A DNA stretch of 64,000 nt, taken from positions 32,001 to 96,000 of the forward strand of contig JASFQK010000001.1 of the NCBI GenBank assembly GCA_050115495.1. Direction: 5' to 3'. Below the pieces are notes generated by a model. It made no database searches, was not told the origin of the DNA, and saw only the letters and a list, made by a program, of their open reading frames with translations. The translations under genes and the position numbers were made by a program. The DNA is from Phycisphaerae bacterium (lineage in GTDB: Bacteria > Planctomycetota > Phycisphaerae > UBA1845 > Fen-1342). Of this stretch, positions 27,186 to 35,779 are shown in pieces. The first letter of the stretch is position 1; each line of letters begins with the position of its first letter.

Positions 27186-30100
27186 TTACACAACAACGGC
27201 GTTCGACCGCCGGTGCGACGGCCAACCCAACAGCACAACCGCCACCAGCATCGGCACGACCGTGGCCAGCGCCGGGCTGACGATCGCTTTCGGTTCGATG
27301 GTCCGCCAGTCCGTTTGGAGCAACCCCTGCCAGGCAATGCTCGCCTCGGGCGACAACGCGTTCACCACCGCCCACAACAGCAGCGCACAACCCAGGCAGC
27401 CACGCAGCAGGTGCGCGCCGCCCCCGCGCCGCCGGGCCATCAGCAGCAGAGCACCGCCGGCCACCACCAGCCCGAGCATGAGTGCCCCCGGCACGCCGTC
27501 GCGGATGAAGCTCAACAACTGCGGCGGCAACTCACCCGAGCCCCGCTCCTCCGCCCACTGGCTCAGCGCCCCATGGCTCACCGCCAGCACGACCCCCGCG
27601 AGCAGCAGCAGCTTGCCCACAAACGACACGCCCGCATCCACCGTCCGTCCCACGAACGACGGCGCCGACGCGTCGATGATCACCGGCTCGACCGGCTCCA
27701 TCGCTTCCGCCGCCGGAGGCGCCACGCGATCCTCCGCCACGGCCACCGCCGGCCCCGCCGACGTGCTCGCCCAGCCGGCGTCCTCCGCCATGTCGTACTC
27801 ATCGTCTGCCGGCGGCGGTGGCGGTACCTGGTTGCCGACGGTCGAACCGCCGCGCCGACCGGGCGCGAGCAGCGCCACCAGGGCCACGACACTCCCCACC
27901 ACCAGTCCAAAGATCGCCCCCGCCTGCTCATCCCCGTGCGGCATCTCGGTGTACGCGAGAATGCTGCTCATGCCCGCCGCCAGCGTCAGGCCCAGCGAGA
28001 CCACGAGCATGCGCATCGTCCCGCCCCAGATCGTCCGCCGCCGCTGCTGAAACGTCTTCGTCAACAGGAAGGGCAGCCATGCCAGACCGCCCAGCAGCGC
28101 AAACAGCAGCGCCGCACCAGCGTCGCCGCAGGGCGCCACGCTGATCAGGGTAACCAGCGCCGACACCATCCCCACCAGTACCAGCAGGCTCAGCACGCCG
28201 AACACGCCCTGCAGCATGTGGCTGCGCGGCCGCGTGCCGTCCGCCTCCAAAGCCACCAGCGTGACCGCTCCCCCCGCCACCAGCCCGAAGATCGTCCCGC
28301 CCAGCTCTTCATTATCCAGCTCCATAAAGGCCGTCACGCTGACCATGCCCGCCACCAGCGTCAGCCCCAGCGAGACCACCAGCGGACGCAACGTCCCACG
28401 CCACAACCCGCGCTGGCGCTGCTGATACGTCTTCGTCAGCAGAAACGGCAACCACGCCACCCCGGCCAGCGTCGCAAACAGCAACCCCGCACAGGCCTCT
28501 CGGTCGCGTCCGAAAACCCAGTTGTATTCCCCGTCGTGCGTGTAGCACTGCGGCGGCGCGATCACCAATACAAAGAACGCCCCCAGCGCGCACGCCACCA
28601 CCAGCGTGCTCAGCACACCATACCACCCGCGCACGGCCGCACTCCGCGGCGGGCCGGTCTCCACTTCGACGGGCGGCGCCGGCGGCGGGCCCTGGCGGAC
28701 CGGCGTCCGGCTCCCCGCCGGGTCACGCCACCGCACCGCTAACCGGCCCCACAGGCTGTGACGCCGGCTCCGCCCGCCCGGACCAGACGGCGGTGTCGTG
28801 CCCGTCGCGACCCCAGGAGTACCGCCCCACAACGATGCCCCCGCCTGCGTTAGCAGTGACATCGTCGCGCACAGACACGCCGCCGGGAACGAGAATTTCC
28901 CGGCGTCCAGAATCGCCGCCGCGATCGCCCCGATGATCGCCGGCCACACCGCCCGCCCGGCGCTCACCTCGCCCCGCTGGCCCGCCTCGATGCGCCCTGT
29001 CCAATCACACAGGACCAGCACCGCCAGGAGCGCCACCAGCATGCGGGCCAGTGGCTCGCTCTCCTCGGCCGCCACGGCGAAGGCGGGGACCATGAACATC
29101 GCCGTCACCCCCGCATACGCCAGCCGATTCCACATCCCTCCCTTCCACGCCGACCAGCGCAACACCCGGAAGTACGCCACCAGCGGACCAGCGCAGCCGG
29201 CCACGTTCGCCAGCACAAAGACGATCGCCCGGTCGATGTTGCCCGTCACCAGCGCCAGGCCGAGACCCACCGCTACGGCCACCGCCACCAGCACGAACCG
29301 CTGCGCCCGCCGGGCCCGCAACGCCTCCGTCTGCACCGGATCCCGCCGCGGCCCGCCGCCCGCCTTGCGCCGCAGCTTCTCCGCCGCCCGCTCCAGCTTC
29401 TGCGAAAACCGGTCCACCTTCTCCTGGTACCGCCGCCCCATCTCGTCCGCCCGCCCGGCCCGCTCGCGCACGTCCAGCGGCGGCACCGGTGGCAGGCGCG
29501 GCGGTGTGGTCATCGTCCGCTCCGGATCGAGCGCCTCCGGATGTCGCGGCCCGCGCGTCAGCGTCGCCGGATCGAACGACGCGATGCTCGCGTCCACATC
29601 GGCGCACTGCCGCAGCTCGTCCGCCATCTCGTTCGCGCTCTGGTAGCGGTCCTTCGGATCCTTGGCCAGGGCCCGGGCGATTACGTTGGCGAACGGCTCG
29701 GGAATGCCGCTGAGATCCGGATGGTCCGTCAGGTGCCGCATCAGGATCTCGCCCATGCTCGACCCCGTGAACGGCAGGCTGCCGGTCAGCAGCTCGAACA
29801 GGATCACGCCCACCGCGTAGATATCGATCGCCTGCGTGTAGCTGCCCGAGCCGATCTCCGGCGCCATGTAGTGCACCGTGCCCACGCTCACCGTCTGCCC
29901 GCTGTGCCGGCTGACGGACATGTGCTTGCTCAGCCCGTAGTCACCGATCTTCACGTAGCCGTCGTCGTAGAACACATTCGCCGGCTTCAGATCGCGGTGC
30001 ACGATGCCCCGCTCGTGCAGGTAGGAGAGCCCGCGGGCCATACCGTCCACGAAGAACGCCGCTTTCTGCGGCCCCAGCCCTCGCGGCTCGGCCAGCATCA

Positions 30101-30386
30101 GCTCGCGCAGCGACGGCCCGCTCACGTACTCCATGATGACGAACGGATCGCCCTCGCTGTTGTGCCGCACGTCGTAGATCGTGATCAGGTGCGGGCTCTT
30201 CAGGTTCATCACGTGCGAGATGCCGCGCAGCTCGATCTCCGGGTTCTCACGCAGGTACTTCAGCGCCACCTGCTTCCCCGAGTCGGTCAGGGCGTAGTAC
30301 ACCTCGCCGAAACCACCGCGACCGACGGCCCGCTGCACCGTGATCCCATCCAGCGGTCGATCGCCATGTCGAAACGTGTACGCCAC
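27186..30386 (-). CDS. Ser/Thr protein kinase with large multi-TM C-terminal region
   Basis: GRGGFG, VALK, HRDLKPAN, DYG, YMAPE; GGAGG RBS; many TM segments with an internal duplication. Confidence 0.93.
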   Translation of the reverse strand: MAYTFRHGDRPLDGITVQRAVGRGGFGEVYYALTDSGKQVALKYLRENPEIELRGISHVMNLKSPHLITIYDVRHNSEGDPFVIMEYVSGPSLRELMLAEPRGLGPQKAAFFVDGMARGLSYLHERGIVHRDLKPANVFYDDGYVKIGDYGLSKHMSVSRHSGQTVSVGTVHYMAPEIGSGSYTQAIDIYAVGVILFELLTGSLPFTGSSMGEILMRHLTDHPDLSGIPEPFANVIARALAKDPKDRYQSANEMADELRQCADVDASIASFDPATLTRGPRHPEALDPERTMTTPPRLPPVPPLDVRERAGRADEMGRRYQEKVDRFSQKLERAAEKLRRKAGGGPRRDPVQTEALRARRAQRFVLVAVAVAVGLGLALVTGNIDRAIVFVLANVAGCAGPLVAYFRVLRWSAWKGGMWNRLAYAGVTAMFMVPAFAVAAEESEPLARMLVALLAVLVLCDWTGRIEAGQRGEVSAGRAVWPAIIGAIAAAILDAGKFSFPAACLCATMSLLTQAGASLWGGTPGVATGTTPPSGPGGRSRRHSLWGRLAVRWRDPAGSRTPVRQGPPPAPPVEVETGPPRSAAVRGWYGVLSTLVVACALGAFFVLVIAPPQCYTHDGEYNWVFGRDREACAGLLFATLAGVAWLPFLLTKTYQQRQRGLWRGTLRPLVVSLGLTLVAGMVSVTAFMELDNEELGGTIFGLVAGGAVTLVALEADGTRPRSHMLQGVFGVLSLLVLVGMVSALVTLISVAPCGDAGAALLFALLGGLAWLPFLLTKTFQQRRRTIWGGTMRMLVVSLGLTLAAGMSSILAYTEMPHGDEQAGAIFGLVVGSVVALVALLAPGRRGGSTVGNQVPPPPPADDEYDMAEDAGWASTSAGPAVAVAEDRVAPPAAEAMEPVEPVIIDASAPSFVGRTVDAGVSFVGKLLLLAGVVLAVSHGALSQWAEERGSGELPPQLLSFIRDGVPGALMLGLVVAGGALLLMARRRGGGAHLLRGCLGCALLLWAVVNALSPEASIAWQGLLQTDWRTIEPKAIVSPALATVVPMLVAVVLLGWPSHRRSNAVVV

Positions 30387-30440: not shown

Positions 30441-32039
30441 TTACGCCAGCGGTTCGTCCTGCATCTCGTAGACCTTCATCGTCAACCGTACATCGCCGAA
30501 ATCGTGCGTCGTACCCAGCCGCAGCGCCTTCGCGTCGCCCAGCTTCCCACCGCCCGACGTCGCCTCTCGCCCGCACAACCGCCCACCCCGATCGAACAGC
30601 ACGACCTGCGTCGCTCCGTCGGGGGTGCGCACGTGGCAGCTAGTTTGCGGCCCGATCAGACCCGTCTCGCGGAACAGCAGCACCTGGCTTACATCCTGCG
30701 GCAGCCGGCACCGGTGCGACACATGCAGCACGGCCGTGTCACTCCGCACGCTCGGCTTGCGGAACACCAGCTTGCCGCCCGGCTCGAGCACGATCCGGTC
30801 TCCGTCCCGCAACAGCGTCCGCTGCACGTCGCGCCGATTCACCCGCACTCGCCCATGCGCCACCAGGAAGTAATCGCCGCCGTCGCGCACGATGTCCGCA
30901 TGATGCGACCGAATGCTCGCCGGAATCGGCACGTCGATCTCCCGACTGCCACCCGACCGCCCCAGCCGCACACGATCCTGCCCCAGCACCAGGCTGCTCC
31001 CCGCCCCATCCACCAGCAGCAGCAGCGCCTTTCCCCCCAGCAGCGCATCGTGCGGACTCGCCGGCGGCGGTGGCGGCACAACCTCGTTCGCCCGCACCGT
31101 CGGCGCAGCTTTCGCCGGCGCGGCCGCCGGCCCCGCCATCGTCGCCAGCAGACCCAGCGGCGACGCCAGCAGCATGTCCTGACCCTCGGTGATCCGCGTC
31201 AGCGCCGCGTGCAACTCATCCACCCAACCCAGCCCCGACCGCGCCGCCCGCAGCCGCAACACCGTCTCCCGCAAACCGGCGTAGTTCCGCTCGCCGAGCT
31301 GCTCCGCCGCCCGCCCCCACAGCCCCGCCATCCGCTCGTACACTTCCAGCCCGGGATGCCACGCGCTCAGCGCCCCCAGCCCCGCCCGCGCCGCCAGGAA
31401 CCGCCCCAACTGCCCCTGCCGCAGCCATTCCTCCAACACGCGCTCGTACGCCGTCGCCAGCCGACCGGCGAACGCATCGCTCTCCCGCGAGCGTCCGTGC
31501 CGCTCACCCGCCTCCTGCCACAAACGCAACGCCGTCGGCACGTCGCCACGATCCAGCGCGTCCCCCGCCTGCGTCAGCAACTCCGCACTGCGCTGCACCC
31601 GGATATCCAGCCGCTCGCGCAGATCCTCGCGCTGCTGCGTATCGTCAACCCGCTCGATGGCCAGCCGCCCCGAATCCAGCCGGCCGGCCTGCACGTTCGC
31701 CGCCGCCTCGTCATAGACCGCCCGCTCGGCGGACTCCCGCTGCCGCCGCTCGGCGGTGTGGGCCTGCACGCGCTGCCGCAATTCCTCCGCTTCGGGTCCG
31801 CCCCGCCCCACGGCCTGCAAACGCTCCAGGTCTTCCCCCGCCGCCTCGTAACGACCCGCCTGCAAGTGCAGCCGTACCCGCGCCAGCAGCGGACGCACCA
31901 GGTCATCCAGCAGCTTCTGCCCCCGCCGCTGCTCCCGGATGTCCGGTTCGGCCGCCAGCCCGTACGCCTCGTCGAGGCGTCCCTCGGCCAGCGCCCGCTC
32001 GGCGGCCCGCAGCCTTACGAATAACCAGTGACTGAACAT
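30441..32039 (-). CDS. Helical (TPR-like) plus FHA-domain protein
   Basis: RVRLGR..DVPI..RSHHADI....RVN...LLRDGDRIVL FHA pattern; lies directly upstream of the kinase. Confidence 0.8.
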   Translation of the reverse strand: MFSHWLFVRLRAAERALAEGRLDEAYGLAAEPDIREQRRGQKLLDDLVRPLLARVRLHLQAGRYEAAGEDLERLQAVGRGGPEAEELRQRVQAHTAERRQRESAERAVYDEAAANVQAGRLDSGRLAIERVDDTQQREDLRERLDIRVQRSAELLTQAGDALDRGDVPTALRLWQEAGERHGRSRESDAFAGRLATAYERVLEEWLRQGQLGRFLAARAGLGALSAWHPGLEVYERMAGLWGRAAEQLGERNYAGLRETVLRLRAARSGLGWVDELHAALTRITEGQDMLLASPLGLLATMAGPAAAPAKAAPTVRANEVVPPPPPASPHDALLGGKALLLLVDGAGSSLVLGQDRVRLGRSGGSREIDVPIPASIRSHHADIVRDGGDYFLVAHGRVRVNRRDVQRTLLRDGDRIVLEPGGKLVFRKPSVRSDTAVLHVSHRCRLPQDVSQVLLFRETGLIGPQTSCHVRTPDGATQVVLFDRGGRLCGREATSGGGKLGDAKALRLGTTHDFGDVRLTMKVYEMQDEPLA

Positions 32040-32264
32040 CGCAACCCTCGAGCTCCGGTCACCACGACGGGACGGACCGCATTCTAGCCGCAAACGTCGG
32101 CCGCCCGGCCCAACGCCCCGCCCTGGGCGCGGCCTGTGTCCGGCACAGACGTATTCACCCGCAACGGGCGGTTATTCACGCATTCCCCCCCACGCGGGGC
32201 CAATGGCCGCTTGGTCCACTCCAGGTGCCAGAACCTGCCCAGTGCGAAAGAGAATGGTGCCTGC

Positions 32265-32390
32265 ATGTCAAGTAACACCGTGGTCATCGAGTTGCTGCAG
32301 ATTCTGACGCAGCCCTGTGAGTACGTCACCCTGGGGGTCGAGGAACAGACATGTCCTCGCCTCTCAGATCGGCTGCCGGCGGGCAGCTGA
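32265..32390 (+). CDS. Small peptide A (41 aa), paralogue of peptide B
   Basis: MSSNTVVIELLQILTQPCEYVTLGVEEQTCPRLSDRLPAGS; 12/18 identity to the 33117 peptide over the core; weak RBS. Confidence 0.55.
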   Translation: MSSNTVVIELLQILTQPCEYVTLGVEEQTCPRLSDRLPAGS

Positions 32391-32569
32391 CCGCAGCATA
32401 TGGTAGTTCAGGCCTACCCATCCCCATTTAGTAGTACATGCCGTCCGGCCGACGCGCAAAAACTGCGCGACCAGCGATCGCGGTTGACAAACGCTTATCA
32501 CCGACCGGTAAAAGGTCGATGCCCTGGATGTGGCGCACGGATTGCGCTGGCGAAAGTCGGAGTCATGCC

Positions 32570-32920
32570 ATGAGATCCGCCCACGCTTGGTACCTGCTCT
32601 TCGCCGCCCTGCTGTTGCTGGGCGTGCTGGCGGTCCTGCTCATCGGCCTCGGTATCCTGCGCAGCCCGGCGGAGACACGTTGGATCGGCGTCGCACTCGT
32701 GCCGGTGATCGGCCTGGTCGTGAAACTGCTCGGCCAGGAGTTCCAGCGCTTGGGCGAACGACGGCGTCCCCTGAGCCCCCCACAACCCCCGCCCGTCCCA
32801 ACTTTCCGTTCTGACGAGCGCAATCTTTGCGCCGCGCCCGGCGCAACGCAGCGAGAAGAACCGCCCGCGCCAAGCCCGCCGCAAACAAACCTCCAGGATC
32901 CTTACCCATTGCTCCAGTGA
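32570..32920 (+). CDS. Small two-TM membrane protein with Pro-rich tail
   Basis: GGAG RBS; two hydrophobic helices; GC3-rich codons in the TM part. Confidence 0.65.
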   Translation: MRSAHAWYLLFAALLLLGVLAVLLIGLGILRSPAETRWIGVALVPVIGLVVKLLGQEFQRLGERRRPLSPPQPPPVPTFRSDERNLCAAPGATQREEPPAPSPPQTNLQDPYPLLQ

Positions 32921-33116
32921 CCGCGATAATCGCAAGGTTCTGCAAAATAGAGATTTACGCTCCAGATTGTGTCGCAAAGCCAGAAACGCGATACCGCGCG
33001 GAAATAATCTCTCGATTGCCTCAAGCCACACTCACACTCAACCGATGTCCAATGCCAGCCAACCGCGCCCGTACCGTTTCTTTGGTGGAGTTTTCGAGAG
33101 AAGCGGAGGCTGCAGG

Positions 33117-33197
33117 ATGTTGCCCTGGTGGTTGTGGGAACTCCTCAGAACACTGTCCCAGATGTGCGATTACGTATGCCTGGGGGTGGAGCTCTAG
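33117..33197 (+). CDS. Small peptide B (26 aa), paralogue of peptide A
   Basis: GGAGG 7 nt before ATG; MLPWWLWELLRTLSQMCDYVCLGVEL. Confidence 0.6.
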   Translation: MLPWWLWELLRTLSQMCDYVCLGVEL

Positions 33198-33199
33198 CC

Positions 33200-33316
33200 A
33201 TGGACGGCTGGCCGCTCGAAACCTGTTTCTCGCCTCGTGAGCAGCGGTGGGGCCGCTACATGGAAACCGCCATGTGGCTGGTTAGCGCAGCCTTGTTGGC
33301 AGCCCTCTTCGCCTGA
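33200..33316 (+). CDS. Small single-TM peptide (38 aa)
   Basis: ATG 2 nt after the peptide B stop, GGAG upstream; MDGWPLETCFSPREQRWGRYMETAMWLVSAALLAALFA. Confidence 0.45.
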   Translation: MDGWPLETCFSPREQRWGRYMETAMWLVSAALLAALFA

Positions 33317-33388
33317 CGCCGGCTGTCAACCGCAGAACCTTCGCGACACCGGGGACGGCGGATGACCGCCCGCTGACGGTCCTCTCGC

Positions 33389-35779
33389 TCACCCGCCGGG
33401 CGCATTCGCCCCCCGGGATCTTTCATCCCTCTTCCCGCCGGCCAGCAGCGTGCTAGACGCAGCCTCGCCGTCGGCGAGCCAGACCGGTCCGGGCCCCAAC
33501 TGCATCTGCCGCACGCGCAACGCGTTGACCAGGTACACCACACTCCCGCTCACCAGCAGCGTCCCCAGCGCCAGGAACACGTGCACCTGCCACAGCGCGA
33601 CCGACCAGCGCGCCCCCAGCGCCACCGTCACGATACCCCCGGCCAGCGCCAACAGACACACGCCCCCCAGCAACCGCCGCGGCCATGTCGGTGCCGCCGG
33701 CAGTAGCCCCACCAGCACCGCCGCCAACGCCGCCCACAGCACGATCGTCGCCCCCAGCATCTTCCACTCGATCTTTCCCTGCGACGCCCCGCCCAGCAGC
33801 GCCCGCAGCGCCTGCACGTGCACTTCACACCCGTAGACCCCCTCGCCTGCCGCTGTCCGGTAGTAGTCCATCAGCGGCAGCGTGTGCCCCACCAGCACCA
33901 CCTGCCCCGCAAACCACCGCCGCACCTGTTCATCGTCCGCGGCGAGCACTTGCTCCAGCGACAGTCGGCGCGTCGCCTCCGGCGGTCCCGGGTCGATCCG
34001 CACGTGCATCCGGTACACGACGTCACCCGCCCGCAACATGCCGTCGCCCGAATTCCGGCCGATCCGGTCGACCTCCCATACGGGAATGCGGTCGGTGCCC
34101 GTGTGCCAGCGCTGTTCGCCCCGGGCCACCTGCCGCTTCCGGTAGCTGAGCATGACCTCCCCCGGCTCCACGTTCAGTTGCAGCGCCGCGTCCGGATAGC
34201 GGGCCGCCGCGAAACCGGCCACGGCCAGCCCCGGGACCGGTGGAGCCAATCCGCGCGACACGCACACCGGCACGATCCACTCGTGGCCGCGCTCGTCCGG
34301 ATCCGCGGACAGCAGCGTCCCCCAGCTATGCACGCGCGAGCGAATCTCCGCGCACATCACCGGCTCGCTGTTCAGATCAATCTCACGCGTCCCCATCACC
34401 ACCGGCACACCGCTGTTCCGCAACGCATCCAGACCGCGCAACAACTCCGCGTCGTAATCCGGCTTGCACTGCGGCAGGAAGTAGTCGCAGATGACCACCT
34501 GCGGCTGCACCGTGGCCAGCCGCTGCAAGAGCAGGCCGAGCACCACTCGCCACGTGCCCGAGTCCCTCGCCTTCATCCCCGCCGCCTGCTCGATCTCCCC
34601 GCGCGCCAGCGTCTCGATCGTCCCCGGCGTGAACGCCACCAGCGAGATCGGCGGCACGTCCACCGCCGCCCCGAACCAGCGCGCCTCTGCCCGCCAGGCC
34701 AGCACCGTCAGCAGCACGGACACGACCATCACCAGGAAGACGCGCACCGCCAGCGGCCGCGTGCGCAGCACGTACGACGCCGACCGCGCCAGTTGATAGC
34801 CGAGCGTCGGATTGCGATATGCGCGAATGACCCGCCCGGCGAGGTAATGGTCGAGATCGTCGATGAGCTCGGCGCAGTTGGCGTAACGCTGCTCGGGCAA
34901 GGGGGCCACGCAACGGCTGATGATCGCCGCCAGATCCTCGGCCCGGGCCACACCACGAGCCTGCAGCGTCCGCAGCAGCCGGTCCGGCCACGTGGCCAGC
35001 CGGGCCGCCTCCCCGGTCACGCAGTGGTACAGCAGCGCCCCCAGGGCGTAGACATCCGCCCGCCCGTCCACGTTCTCACCTGCCATCTGCTCCGGCGCGA
35101 TGTAGCCCAGCGTGCCCAGCGCCCCCTCAGACACCGGCATCGGCGTGCGCTGCGCGTCGTCACGCAGCTTCAGCCGAGTGGCGATGCCGAAATCGAGAAT
35201 GTGCGGCTCGCCATCCGCATCAATGAGAATGTTCTGCGGCTTGATGTCGCGGTGCACGACGCCCTGGGCATGGGCGTAGCCCACGGCGGCGGCCACCGTC
35301 TTGATCAGCTCTATGCGCTTCGCCAGCGACAAATGCCGCCGGCGGATGTGCTGGTCCAGTTGCTCGCCGGCCACGAAGTCCATCGTGTAGTACAGCGGCG
35401 GCTTGCCCAGATGGGCCTCGTACAGCGTGGCGATGTTCGGGTGCCGCAGCCGGGCGATCAGGTGCACCTCGTTCTGGAAGTAGCGGGCCCGCACCGGCGT
35501 CTTGCCGAAGAGAATCTTCAGCGCCTCGGTCCGCTGCTTGGCATGGTGCACGACCTTGTAAACCACCCCGAACCCCCCCTCACCGATCCGCTCCACCACC
35601 GTGTAGTGGGGCAGACGCGGCAGCCGACCGAGCGTCGCCTCGCGATAGCGCCGCCGGCAGGCGTCACACGTCTCAAGGTGCTCCTGGGCCTCCTCGTGCT
35701 CGCGGCCCGCCAGGGTCCCGTGCACCAGGCTGTCGGTCACCGCGTCCCGCGGGCAGCGCTGGCCCAACCGTTCCATCAT
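33389..35779 (-). CDS. Ser/Thr kinase with N-terminal HxxxCxxC zinc finger and C-terminal CHASE2 sensor
   Basis: HLETCDAC; GEGGFG, HRDIKPQN, DFG, YIAPE; TM; CHASE2 motifs PQVVICDYF..D..L, FAGQVVLVG, GCEVH; three terminal TMs. Confidence 0.88.
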   Translation of the reverse strand: MMERLGQRCPRDAVTDSLVHGTLAGREHEEAQEHLETCDACRRRYREATLGRLPRLPHYTVVERIGEGGFGVVYKVVHHAKQRTEALKILFGKTPVRARYFQNEVHLIARLRHPNIATLYEAHLGKPPLYYTMDFVAGEQLDQHIRRRHLSLAKRIELIKTVAAAVGYAHAQGVVHRDIKPQNILIDADGEPHILDFGIATRLKLRDDAQRTPMPVSEGALGTLGYIAPEQMAGENVDGRADVYALGALLYHCVTGEAARLATWPDRLLRTLQARGVARAEDLAAIISRCVAPLPEQRYANCAELIDDLDHYLAGRVIRAYRNPTLGYQLARSASYVLRTRPLAVRVFLVMVVSVLLTVLAWRAEARWFGAAVDVPPISLVAFTPGTIETLARGEIEQAAGMKARDSGTWRVVLGLLLQRLATVQPQVVICDYFLPQCKPDYDAELLRGLDALRNSGVPVVMGTREIDLNSEPVMCAEIRSRVHSWGTLLSADPDERGHEWIVPVCVSRGLAPPVPGLAVAGFAAARYPDAALQLNVEPGEVMLSYRKRQVARGEQRWHTGTDRIPVWEVDRIGRNSGDGMLRAGDVVYRMHVRIDPGPPEATRRLSLEQVLAADDEQVRRWFAGQVVLVGHTLPLMDYYRTAAGEGVYGCEVHVQALRALLGGASQGKIEWKMLGATIVLWAALAAVLVGLLPAAPTWPRRLLGGVCLLALAGGIVTVALGARWSVALWQVHVFLALGTLLVSGSVVYLVNALRVRQMQLGPGPVWLADGEAASSTLLAGGKRDERSRGANAPGG

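Follow-up and report, generated by a model that had tools for sequence, protein, structure and literature searches.

A two-gene microprotein cassette set between Ser/Thr kinase loci in a family of Phycisphaerae, with a possible role in kinase modulation

What are two tiny, similar peptides encoded between two membrane Ser/Thr kinase loci of a Phycisphaerae bacterium, and are they genes at all? The question was raised by a sequence-only reading of a 64,000-nucleotide stretch of DNA (the whole stretch analysed here, hereafter the window), which pointed to two forward-strand open reading frames (ORFs) in the gap between an FHA/kinase operon and a CHASE2 kinase gene: a 41-aa ORF at 32265–32390, MSSNTVVIELLQILTQPCEYVTLGVEEQTCPRLSDRLPAGS, and a 26-aa ORF at 33117–33197, MLPWWLWELLRTLSQMCDYVCLGVEL. 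Both ORFs are present at these coordinates, the 26-aa ORF is preceded by a GGAGG ribosome-binding site at 33105–33109, and the gap is indeed less GC-rich (0.58–0.65) than its surroundings (mostly 0.66–0.75). The two cores are alike at 12 of 18 residues, six of the 12 being encoded through synonymous codons, with 34 of 54 bases identical. The proposal that selection acts here on a peptide and not on a DNA repeat was borne out, with pS of 0.77 and pN of 0.24 between the cores (Fisher p=0.002) and dN/dS below 1 in both gene families described below. What had been taken for two parallel pairs of peptide and membrane protein is instead one two-gene cassette, microprotein A (the 26-aa ORF) with microprotein B (38 aa, 33200–33316, forward strand), accompanied by an altered extra copy of A, and the observation is larger than first described.

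Members of the two families were collected starting from full-length orthologues of the downstream CHASE2 kinase, by inspecting the region behind each. At 22 of the 36 orthologue loci, which come from 35 genomes and include three with fewer than 600 bases downstream, the kinase gene is followed by a homologue of the 26-aa peptide, always on the strand opposite to the kinase and 240–840 bases past its aligned end. Profile searches of relatives, suggested together with the original observation, recovered A with a conserved frame: of the 72 genomes that represent this Phycisphaerae family, a first pass matched 46, and profiles with local follow-up gave 73 loci in 66. No A was found in G015, G051, G062, G068, G069 and G075, and in G062, G069 and G075 the contig ends at the expected places. 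B is present in 62 of the 72 genomes at E≤1.3e-6, the next score after the gap being 1.3e-3, and G082 and G083 carry a divergent B-like ORF directly behind A. Weak B matches in G051, G062 and G075 have no preceding A and were rejected. A was matched in 0 of 179 genomes from other families of the order and in 0 of 400 from other orders of the phylum; two B matches among the 179 lie inside frames of 363 and 1139 aa and were taken as chance. Neither A nor B was found upstream of the TPR-FHA gene at the 20 of 20 other-family loci checked, or behind four distant kinase paralogues, and a nucleotide search with the gap against 40 relatives returned one real homologous stretch only (G005). These ranges describe samples of genomes, absence holding for the genomes searched; related genomes are not independent, many are assembled in fragments, and copies adjacent to the kinase gene served as seeds for the first profiles.

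Microprotein A is 22–32 aa long and has a negative net charge in 64 of 64 copies. Along the whole length, E/D, R and D interrupt the hydrophobic columns with the periodicity of a helix (median hydrophobic moment 0.58 in 63 copies), a pattern consistent with an acidic amphipathic helix. A basic N-terminus is missing, K or R occurring within the first six positions in 1 of 63 copies. In a 59-row alignment one Gly is invariant and a Glu is kept in 55 rows; in 54 of 61 copies a single residue separates G-x-E from the stop codon, and in five there are three. The last aligned residue is Gly in 32 of 59 rows and Ala in 14, with Glu inside the last three residues, and the copy in the window ends L-G-V-E-L-stop. 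All four codons are used for the invariant Gly (17, 15, 11 and 7 copies), so it is conserved at the protein level. Where B is present, the terminal Glu is encoded by GAG in 43 of 50 copies and by GAA in seven, against 70% GAG in neighbouring genes; this codon often yields GAGG ahead of B and may double as the ribosome site of B in part of the family. The motif first proposed, ELLxxLxQxC[DE]YVxLGVE, does not hold for the family in that form: E/D...Y-V-x-L-G-x-E-x-stop is conserved, and the Cys occurs at its position in 2 of 61 aligned copies, both in the genome carrying the window (G000, 5.97 Mb, 92% complete, in which the window is C1:32001–96000). Any Cys at all is found in 10 of 64 copies.

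The Cys bears on an early comparison with AgrD, whose defining features are a conserved Cys, an acidic tail and the partner AgrB (PMC5789755, as far as the accessible part of that source goes). An N-terminal amphipathic helix is common to AgrD and A. Identity with AgrD was rejected on the rarity of Cys at that column, the missing acidic tail and the lack of an AgrB match: the AgrB family PF04647 has 0 matches in G000, in a search where no control genome passed the cut-off, and AgrB is not among the conserved neighbours. Nor do the conserved neighbours include a RiPP enzyme or a peptidase-transporter; G000 has two C39 peptidase genes, both on other contigs.

Microprotein B, 38–59 aa in most copies, carries F-[T/S]-x-x-E and basic residues followed by a single hydrophobic helix, whose two Trp are conserved in 51 and 46 of 54 copies; the copy in the window stops short of the second Trp. 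The mean number of K/R is 2.8 before the helix and 0.16 after it, and from this distribution of charge we infer that this single-pass membrane protein has its N-terminus inside. Among 1.84 billion library representatives B has 131 matches, 126 of them at most 60 aa long. One library protein (P0126, 351 aa) begins with a B-like segment, apparently serving an unrelated domain as signal or anchor, and one database copy of B is labelled Phycisphaerae. Neither microprotein belongs to a named family in Pfam (64 members of A and 141 of B searched, with stray matches in 1–2 of each), NCBIfam or the PDB sequences, and the best ESM Atlas matches, 0.87 for A and 0.89 for B, fall in hypothetical clusters only. 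The FHA motif for phospho-threonine usually includes G-R, Ser, His and Asn; the FHA domain encoded next to the cassette keeps G-R and His, without the usual Ser and Asn. A role of F-T-x-x-E in B as a phospho-site for this domain was considered and set aside, given Ser instead of Thr in 15 of 54 copies, the incomplete FHA motif and a helix cap that would fit equally well.

Both families are under purifying selection, with pS 0.35, pN 0.11 and dN/dS 0.25 for A (16 hand-picked pairs of close copies, 403 codons) and pS 0.36, pN 0.15 and dN/dS 0.34 for B (13 pairs, 549 codons), and no other reading frame is open in all copies. The start of B lies from −4 to +6 bases from the stop of A in 49 of 55 cases, a survey in which start codons were picked by their Shine-Dalgarno sequences, making any count of the latter circular; in the window, B begins two bases behind A. 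Cassette-type B is always preceded by A, and A can occur alone. A natural fusion in G001 joins the two in a single 68-aa ORF without the G-x-E end of A (L044:3032–3238), and the same fusion is library representative P0103. In RNA libraries, an assembled contig of run X1 (record 8, 375 bases, 33066–33440, no strand assigned) matches the window with 0 differences and bridges A and B, as does record 10 of run X2, a metatranscriptome from another study (33138–33342, 0 differences). The bridging X1 contig has a depth of 108 and the other seven X1 pieces listed 2–6, with one of 44, figures that cannot rank genes and, as strand and ends are not shown and DNA may be present, speak of cover only. The contig of depth 44 (28660–29230) maps to the multi-pass kinase gene, within its membrane part. 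Among the RNA pieces listed none covers the 41-aa copy, most of the CHASE2 kinase gene is likewise bare, and a gap in cover proves nothing. A and B are two real, selected and coupled genes with a describable anatomy, range and neighbourhood and with RNA-library contigs over both. Duplication and decay of the cassette recur: L053 (G050) holds a near-identical duplicate of A whose stop is lost, and L081 and L118 (G093) hold a duplicate with a frameshifted B.

The 41-aa ORF reads as a true but altered second A. A family profile of 59 members from which it was left out finds it genome-wide at E=8.3e-4 as one of two matches, and no prominent third copy is seen in the 5.97-Mb genome, where the next score is 30.5 against 77–78 for self-matches. 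The copy aligns to the 26-aa gene from the ribosome site through the ATG behind: CAG at 32346–32348 replaces the family stop, the ATG persists two bases on (32351), and no B-like ORF follows. Its core shares 39 of 54 bases with the copies of G047, G070 and G013 as against 34 of 54 with its 26-aa neighbour, a distance that, together with the pS and pN values given above, shows it to be no recent duplicate. The hydrophobic N-terminus is lost, and among the copies of A only this one and that of G050 run well beyond the conserved end. The 41-aa copy is about as likely to be a working variant as a gene in decay. A second, B-less A beside the FHA gene also occurs in G024, G064, G043, G073 and G050 and is the sole copy in G052 and G074, with selection evident in the pairs G024–G064 (pS 0.52, pN 0.19) and G043–G073 (pS 0.67, pN 0.22). 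The sequence-only reading had also placed a small hydrophobic ORF behind each peptide. The one at 33200–33316, now B, is kept family-wide; the 116-aa ORF at 32570–32920 (forward strand), overlapping a palindrome discussed below, lies outside the conserved system, with three weak matches in 71 genomes, two of them with internal stops, and no likeness to the B profile.

The cassette is divergent from one kinase operon and convergent with a second kinase gene. The first gene of the divergent operon (30441–32039, reverse strand) encodes a protein with a TPR-like helical repeat domain and FHA-type domains (Pfam FHA), whose model (pLDDT 89) has EmbR, GarA and TPR structural matches and whose helical part keeps 11 nearly invariant Arg; it is found, mostly in single copy, in 230 of 251 genomes of the order and in 161 of 179 from other families. 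Behind it lies a Hanks-type Ser/Thr kinase gene (27186–30386, reverse strand) with many transmembrane helices by Pfam and hydropathy, followed in 17 of 32 loci of relatives by an ECF sigma gene; the ECF orthologue of G000 is on another contig (C17:73723–74613) and is 74% identical to the G023 copy. The convergent gene (33389–35779, reverse strand) encodes a Hanks-type kinase in which Pfam and hydropathy indicate a weak zf-HC2 match, the kinase domain, a transmembrane helix, CHASE2 and three further helices. Full-length orthologues occur in 35 of 36 family genomes, and in 24 other-family genomes the best matches are mostly restricted to the kinase domain, two being longer at 32–33%. A fold search with the CHASE2 part, modelled at pLDDT 90, gave nothing in the PDB at E≤0.001.

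Recurrent synteny with the neighbouring genes, proposed as a check when the peptides were first noticed, is seen for both the FHA gene and the CHASE2 kinase gene: A adjoins the FHA gene at 47 of 68 and the CHASE2 kinase gene at 42 of 68, compared with 17 of 32 and 13 of 27 for two control pairs of local genes. Among 64 loci assembled on both sides, 27 retain both flanks, 18 the FHA gene only, 14 the kinase only and five neither, close to what independent loss of the two flanks would give, while the FHA-kinase pair is kept in 40 of 41 cases. The conserved neighbours comprise kinases, TPR-FHA, ECF, TIM, SecG and SpoIIE. Upstream of the CHASE2 kinase, a conserved unnamed protein without a Pfam match (L043:1353–1976 and 13 other loci; C1:185052–185645 in G000) presumably resembles a 3D-domain cell-wall protein. 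In four loci a SpoIIE-type phosphatase gene precedes that of the CHASE2 kinase, and such a gene also faces the second cassette of G024 in convergent orientation (L069 and L150 (G024); L066, L175, L177).

A motif search of 64 upstream regions gave two DNA elements. The palindrome GCGCAA-N3-TTGCGC (32818–32832, no strand assigned) lies about 300 bases upstream of A, with looser copies at 32454 and 32533, and was seen in 27 of the 58 sequences lying ahead of A, against 0 of 14 ahead of FHA genes that lack the cassette and 127 of 5000 random stretches, the pattern having been derived from the same upstream regions. It travels with the cassette and looks operator-like. Five more perfect palindromes are present in G000 (C2:196272, C7:29824, C11:84166, C14:135973, C33:844), a count within the range of shuffled patterns. 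The bipartite GAATA-N17-GAATAC (32151–32177, reverse strand), found in 30 of the 64 upstream regions, is 111 bases ahead of the TPR-FHA gene, remains next to that gene where the cassette is located elsewhere and has the look of an ECF promoter; at 5 of the 20 other-family loci it likewise precedes the FHA gene. With spacers of 16–18 bases the element has eight sites in G000, several of them 40–110 bases ahead of an ORF (those outside the window are C1:190135, C8:52520, C9:24927, C9:43593, C12:17931, C16:61338 and C19:90746), which together form a candidate ECF regulon that would include the TPR-FHA/kinase operon. No sigma-70 promoter was found in the gap, and Rfam gave no meaningful match over 31900–33600.

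The best explanation, which we hold tentatively and at somewhat less than even probability, assigns A and B a modulating role towards the Hanks-type kinases next to them, comparable to that of MgrB or UgtS/UgtL towards PhoQ; the kinase-modulator option of the sequence-only reading is the leading one. One short transcript with its own operator-like site would yield A and B, co-translated. B would insert N-in via its one transmembrane helix, and A, an acidic amphipathic helix whose C-terminus is fixed, would remain at the cytoplasmic face. As presumed partners the two would tune, in whichever sense, the adjacent membrane Ser/Thr kinases, with the CHASE2 kinase as the most probable target, and through them the TPR-FHA/kinase/ECF pathway.

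Known systems lend this reading some precedent, and it is with small-protein modulators of membrane kinases that the anatomy and location of the cassette agree best. B has the anatomy of small kinase modulators, being below about 60 aa with one transmembrane helix and, judging from charge, an inside N-terminus. MgrB, of 47 aa, inhibits the histidine kinase PhoQ, with W20 and two N-terminal Lys as key residues in the part of the source available (PMC8404706), and B is like it in size class, single transmembrane helix, N-terminal basic residues and a conserved Trp in the helix. Unlike MgrB, B lacks a periplasmic Cys pair, comes with a second microprotein and neighbours Hanks-type rather than histidine kinases; no MgrB model appears in the Pfam matches of the 141 B members or in the NCBIfam matches of the B in the window. 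In the Salmonella UgtS/UgtL bicistron, as described in the accessible text of two sources, 34-aa UgtS binds UgtL and PhoQ (PMC8896665; PMC12648545), and the cassette recalls it as a two-gene operon of narrow taxonomic range in which a tiny upstream protein precedes its partner. Here too there are differences: most copies of B have 38–59 aa, not 132, no homology was seen, inheritance is family-wide, and the kinases are Ser/Thr kinases.

Weak signs, drawn from comparisons of genomes, point to the CHASE2 kinase as the target. Cassette and full-length CHASE2 kinase are both limited to this Phycisphaerae family among the genomes searched, whereas TPR-FHA is order-wide. The three genomes with two strong copies of the kinase (G043, G061 and G073, from two genera) all have at least two A, as do 5 of 63 others, and kinase, A and B are jointly absent from G015 and G068. 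Divergence of B tracks that of the kinase with FHA held fixed (partial r 0.26, permutation p 0.03) and not that of FHA given the kinase (−0.02; 16 genomes, kinship uncorrected). On the other side, G051 has both kinases and no cassette was found in it, G052 has the kinase and A without B, and the cassette belongs to neither kinase operon. In addition, 8 of 9 A-only copies, none picked via the CHASE2 kinase, adjoin the TPR-FHA gene, and divergence of A follows the two neighbours about equally (0.29 and 0.23). In a complex prediction with the membrane and CHASE2 part of the G004 kinase plus A and B, run without folded controls, B scored 0.29 and 0.15 against a mark of 0.32, which weighs neither way.

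The linkage of cassette and kinase may be partly inherited gene order, since the two flanks break about independently and the FHA-kinase pair is kept far better. This is the ground for a rather unlikely alternative, in which A and B would be outputs or bystanders (envelope-stress proteins or subunits of another membrane complex), switched by a palindrome-binding regulator and placed by inherited order. The operator-like site of the cassette itself and its position beside neither kinase locus in 3 of 66 genomes fit such an account, which fares less well with copy number and loss that track the CHASE2 kinase in the few informative genomes, and with adjacency kept more often than in the two control pairs.

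Quite improbable is that A is a self-made peptide signal whose free C-terminus is read by the TPR domain of the TPR-FHA adaptor inside the cell or, after export, by the CHASE2 kinase in the manner of SHP/Rgg, with B as a dedicated membrane co-receptor or carrier that presents or moves A. SHP pheromones carry a basic N-terminus for export. A lacks this feature and is coupled to a membrane protein; the conserved neighbours include no peptidase or exporter, and the Rgg model TIGR01716 has 0 matches in G000, with a Lactococcus control positive. In the partial text available, SHPs are 22–23 aa long with an acidic residue and a C-terminal Gly of importance (PMC3150281), and A recalls them as a hydrophobic ORF of 22–32 aa on the strand opposite to a helical-repeat gene, and perhaps also in the acidic residue near its end and the Gly that is often terminal. 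The fixed stop after G-x-E, the divergent TPR gene with its nearly invariant Arg, and A-only copies by that gene that are still under selection would suit a ligand. That neighbour, unlike Rgg, has FHA domains and no DNA-binding domain that we detected, and most other-family genomes carry TPR-FHA with no A matched in any of them. Were A such a signal, it would make a peptide-controlled Ser/Thr-kinase-to-ECF relay in a diderm bacterium and a first candidate ligand of a CHASE2 kinase.

We regard as highly doubtful the idea that A is a cis-acting leader or ribosome-arrest peptide setting the level of B, its end being a stalling motif and partly the ribosome-binding site of B. Conserved residues do cluster at the stop, and the excess of GAG over the neighbouring genes, often creating GAGG before B, is what such a leader might leave; but Gly appears in all four codons, Glu persists as GAA in seven copies, the amphipathic pattern runs over the full length of A, and A-only copies retain frame, end and selection without B. 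A toxin–antitoxin pair (B the membrane toxin, A the antidote) or an AgrD/RiPP-type precursor is hardly credible: B of the cassette type is never found without A ahead and A is sometimes alone, and B is in the size range of small membrane toxins (PMC12648545, in the portion available), yet the cassette is nearly always single-copy in one inherited place in one family, and the precursor idea of the sequence-only reading falls with the scarce Cys, the stop so soon after G-x-E, the lack of an AgrB match and the absence of a maturase or other modifying enzyme among the conserved neighbours.

We found no literature on the cassette, PMC11032199 in its accessible part included, in a search that covered few subscription papers. 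Planctomycete kinase-associated ECF groups comprise ECF59, 61, 62 and 217, the ECF61 kinases having at least five helices and lying upstream, and the consulted portion of their description names no FHA, CHASE2 or microprotein partner (PMC7826278). The flanking operon is like these groups in that an ECF gene adjoins a multi-pass Ser/Thr kinase, a comparison of gene order and kinase only. In the section available of one review, small kinase modulators act mostly on histidine kinases (PMC12648545). A and B are new small-protein families, and their likely role is of a type already described elsewhere, here in a new context.

Most gene callers would miss A because of its shortness, and annotation lists B as hypothetical; the two families are now defined by alignments, range, selection and regulatory sites. 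Both peptides are amenable to synthesis or to co-expression in a laboratory strain, which makes a cultured host unnecessary for testing. Planctomycetes depend on Ser/Thr kinases tied to ECF sigma factors, and little is known of their inputs. Should the adjacent kinases be targets of A and B, microprotein control would reach bacterial Hanks-type kinase/ECF signalling.
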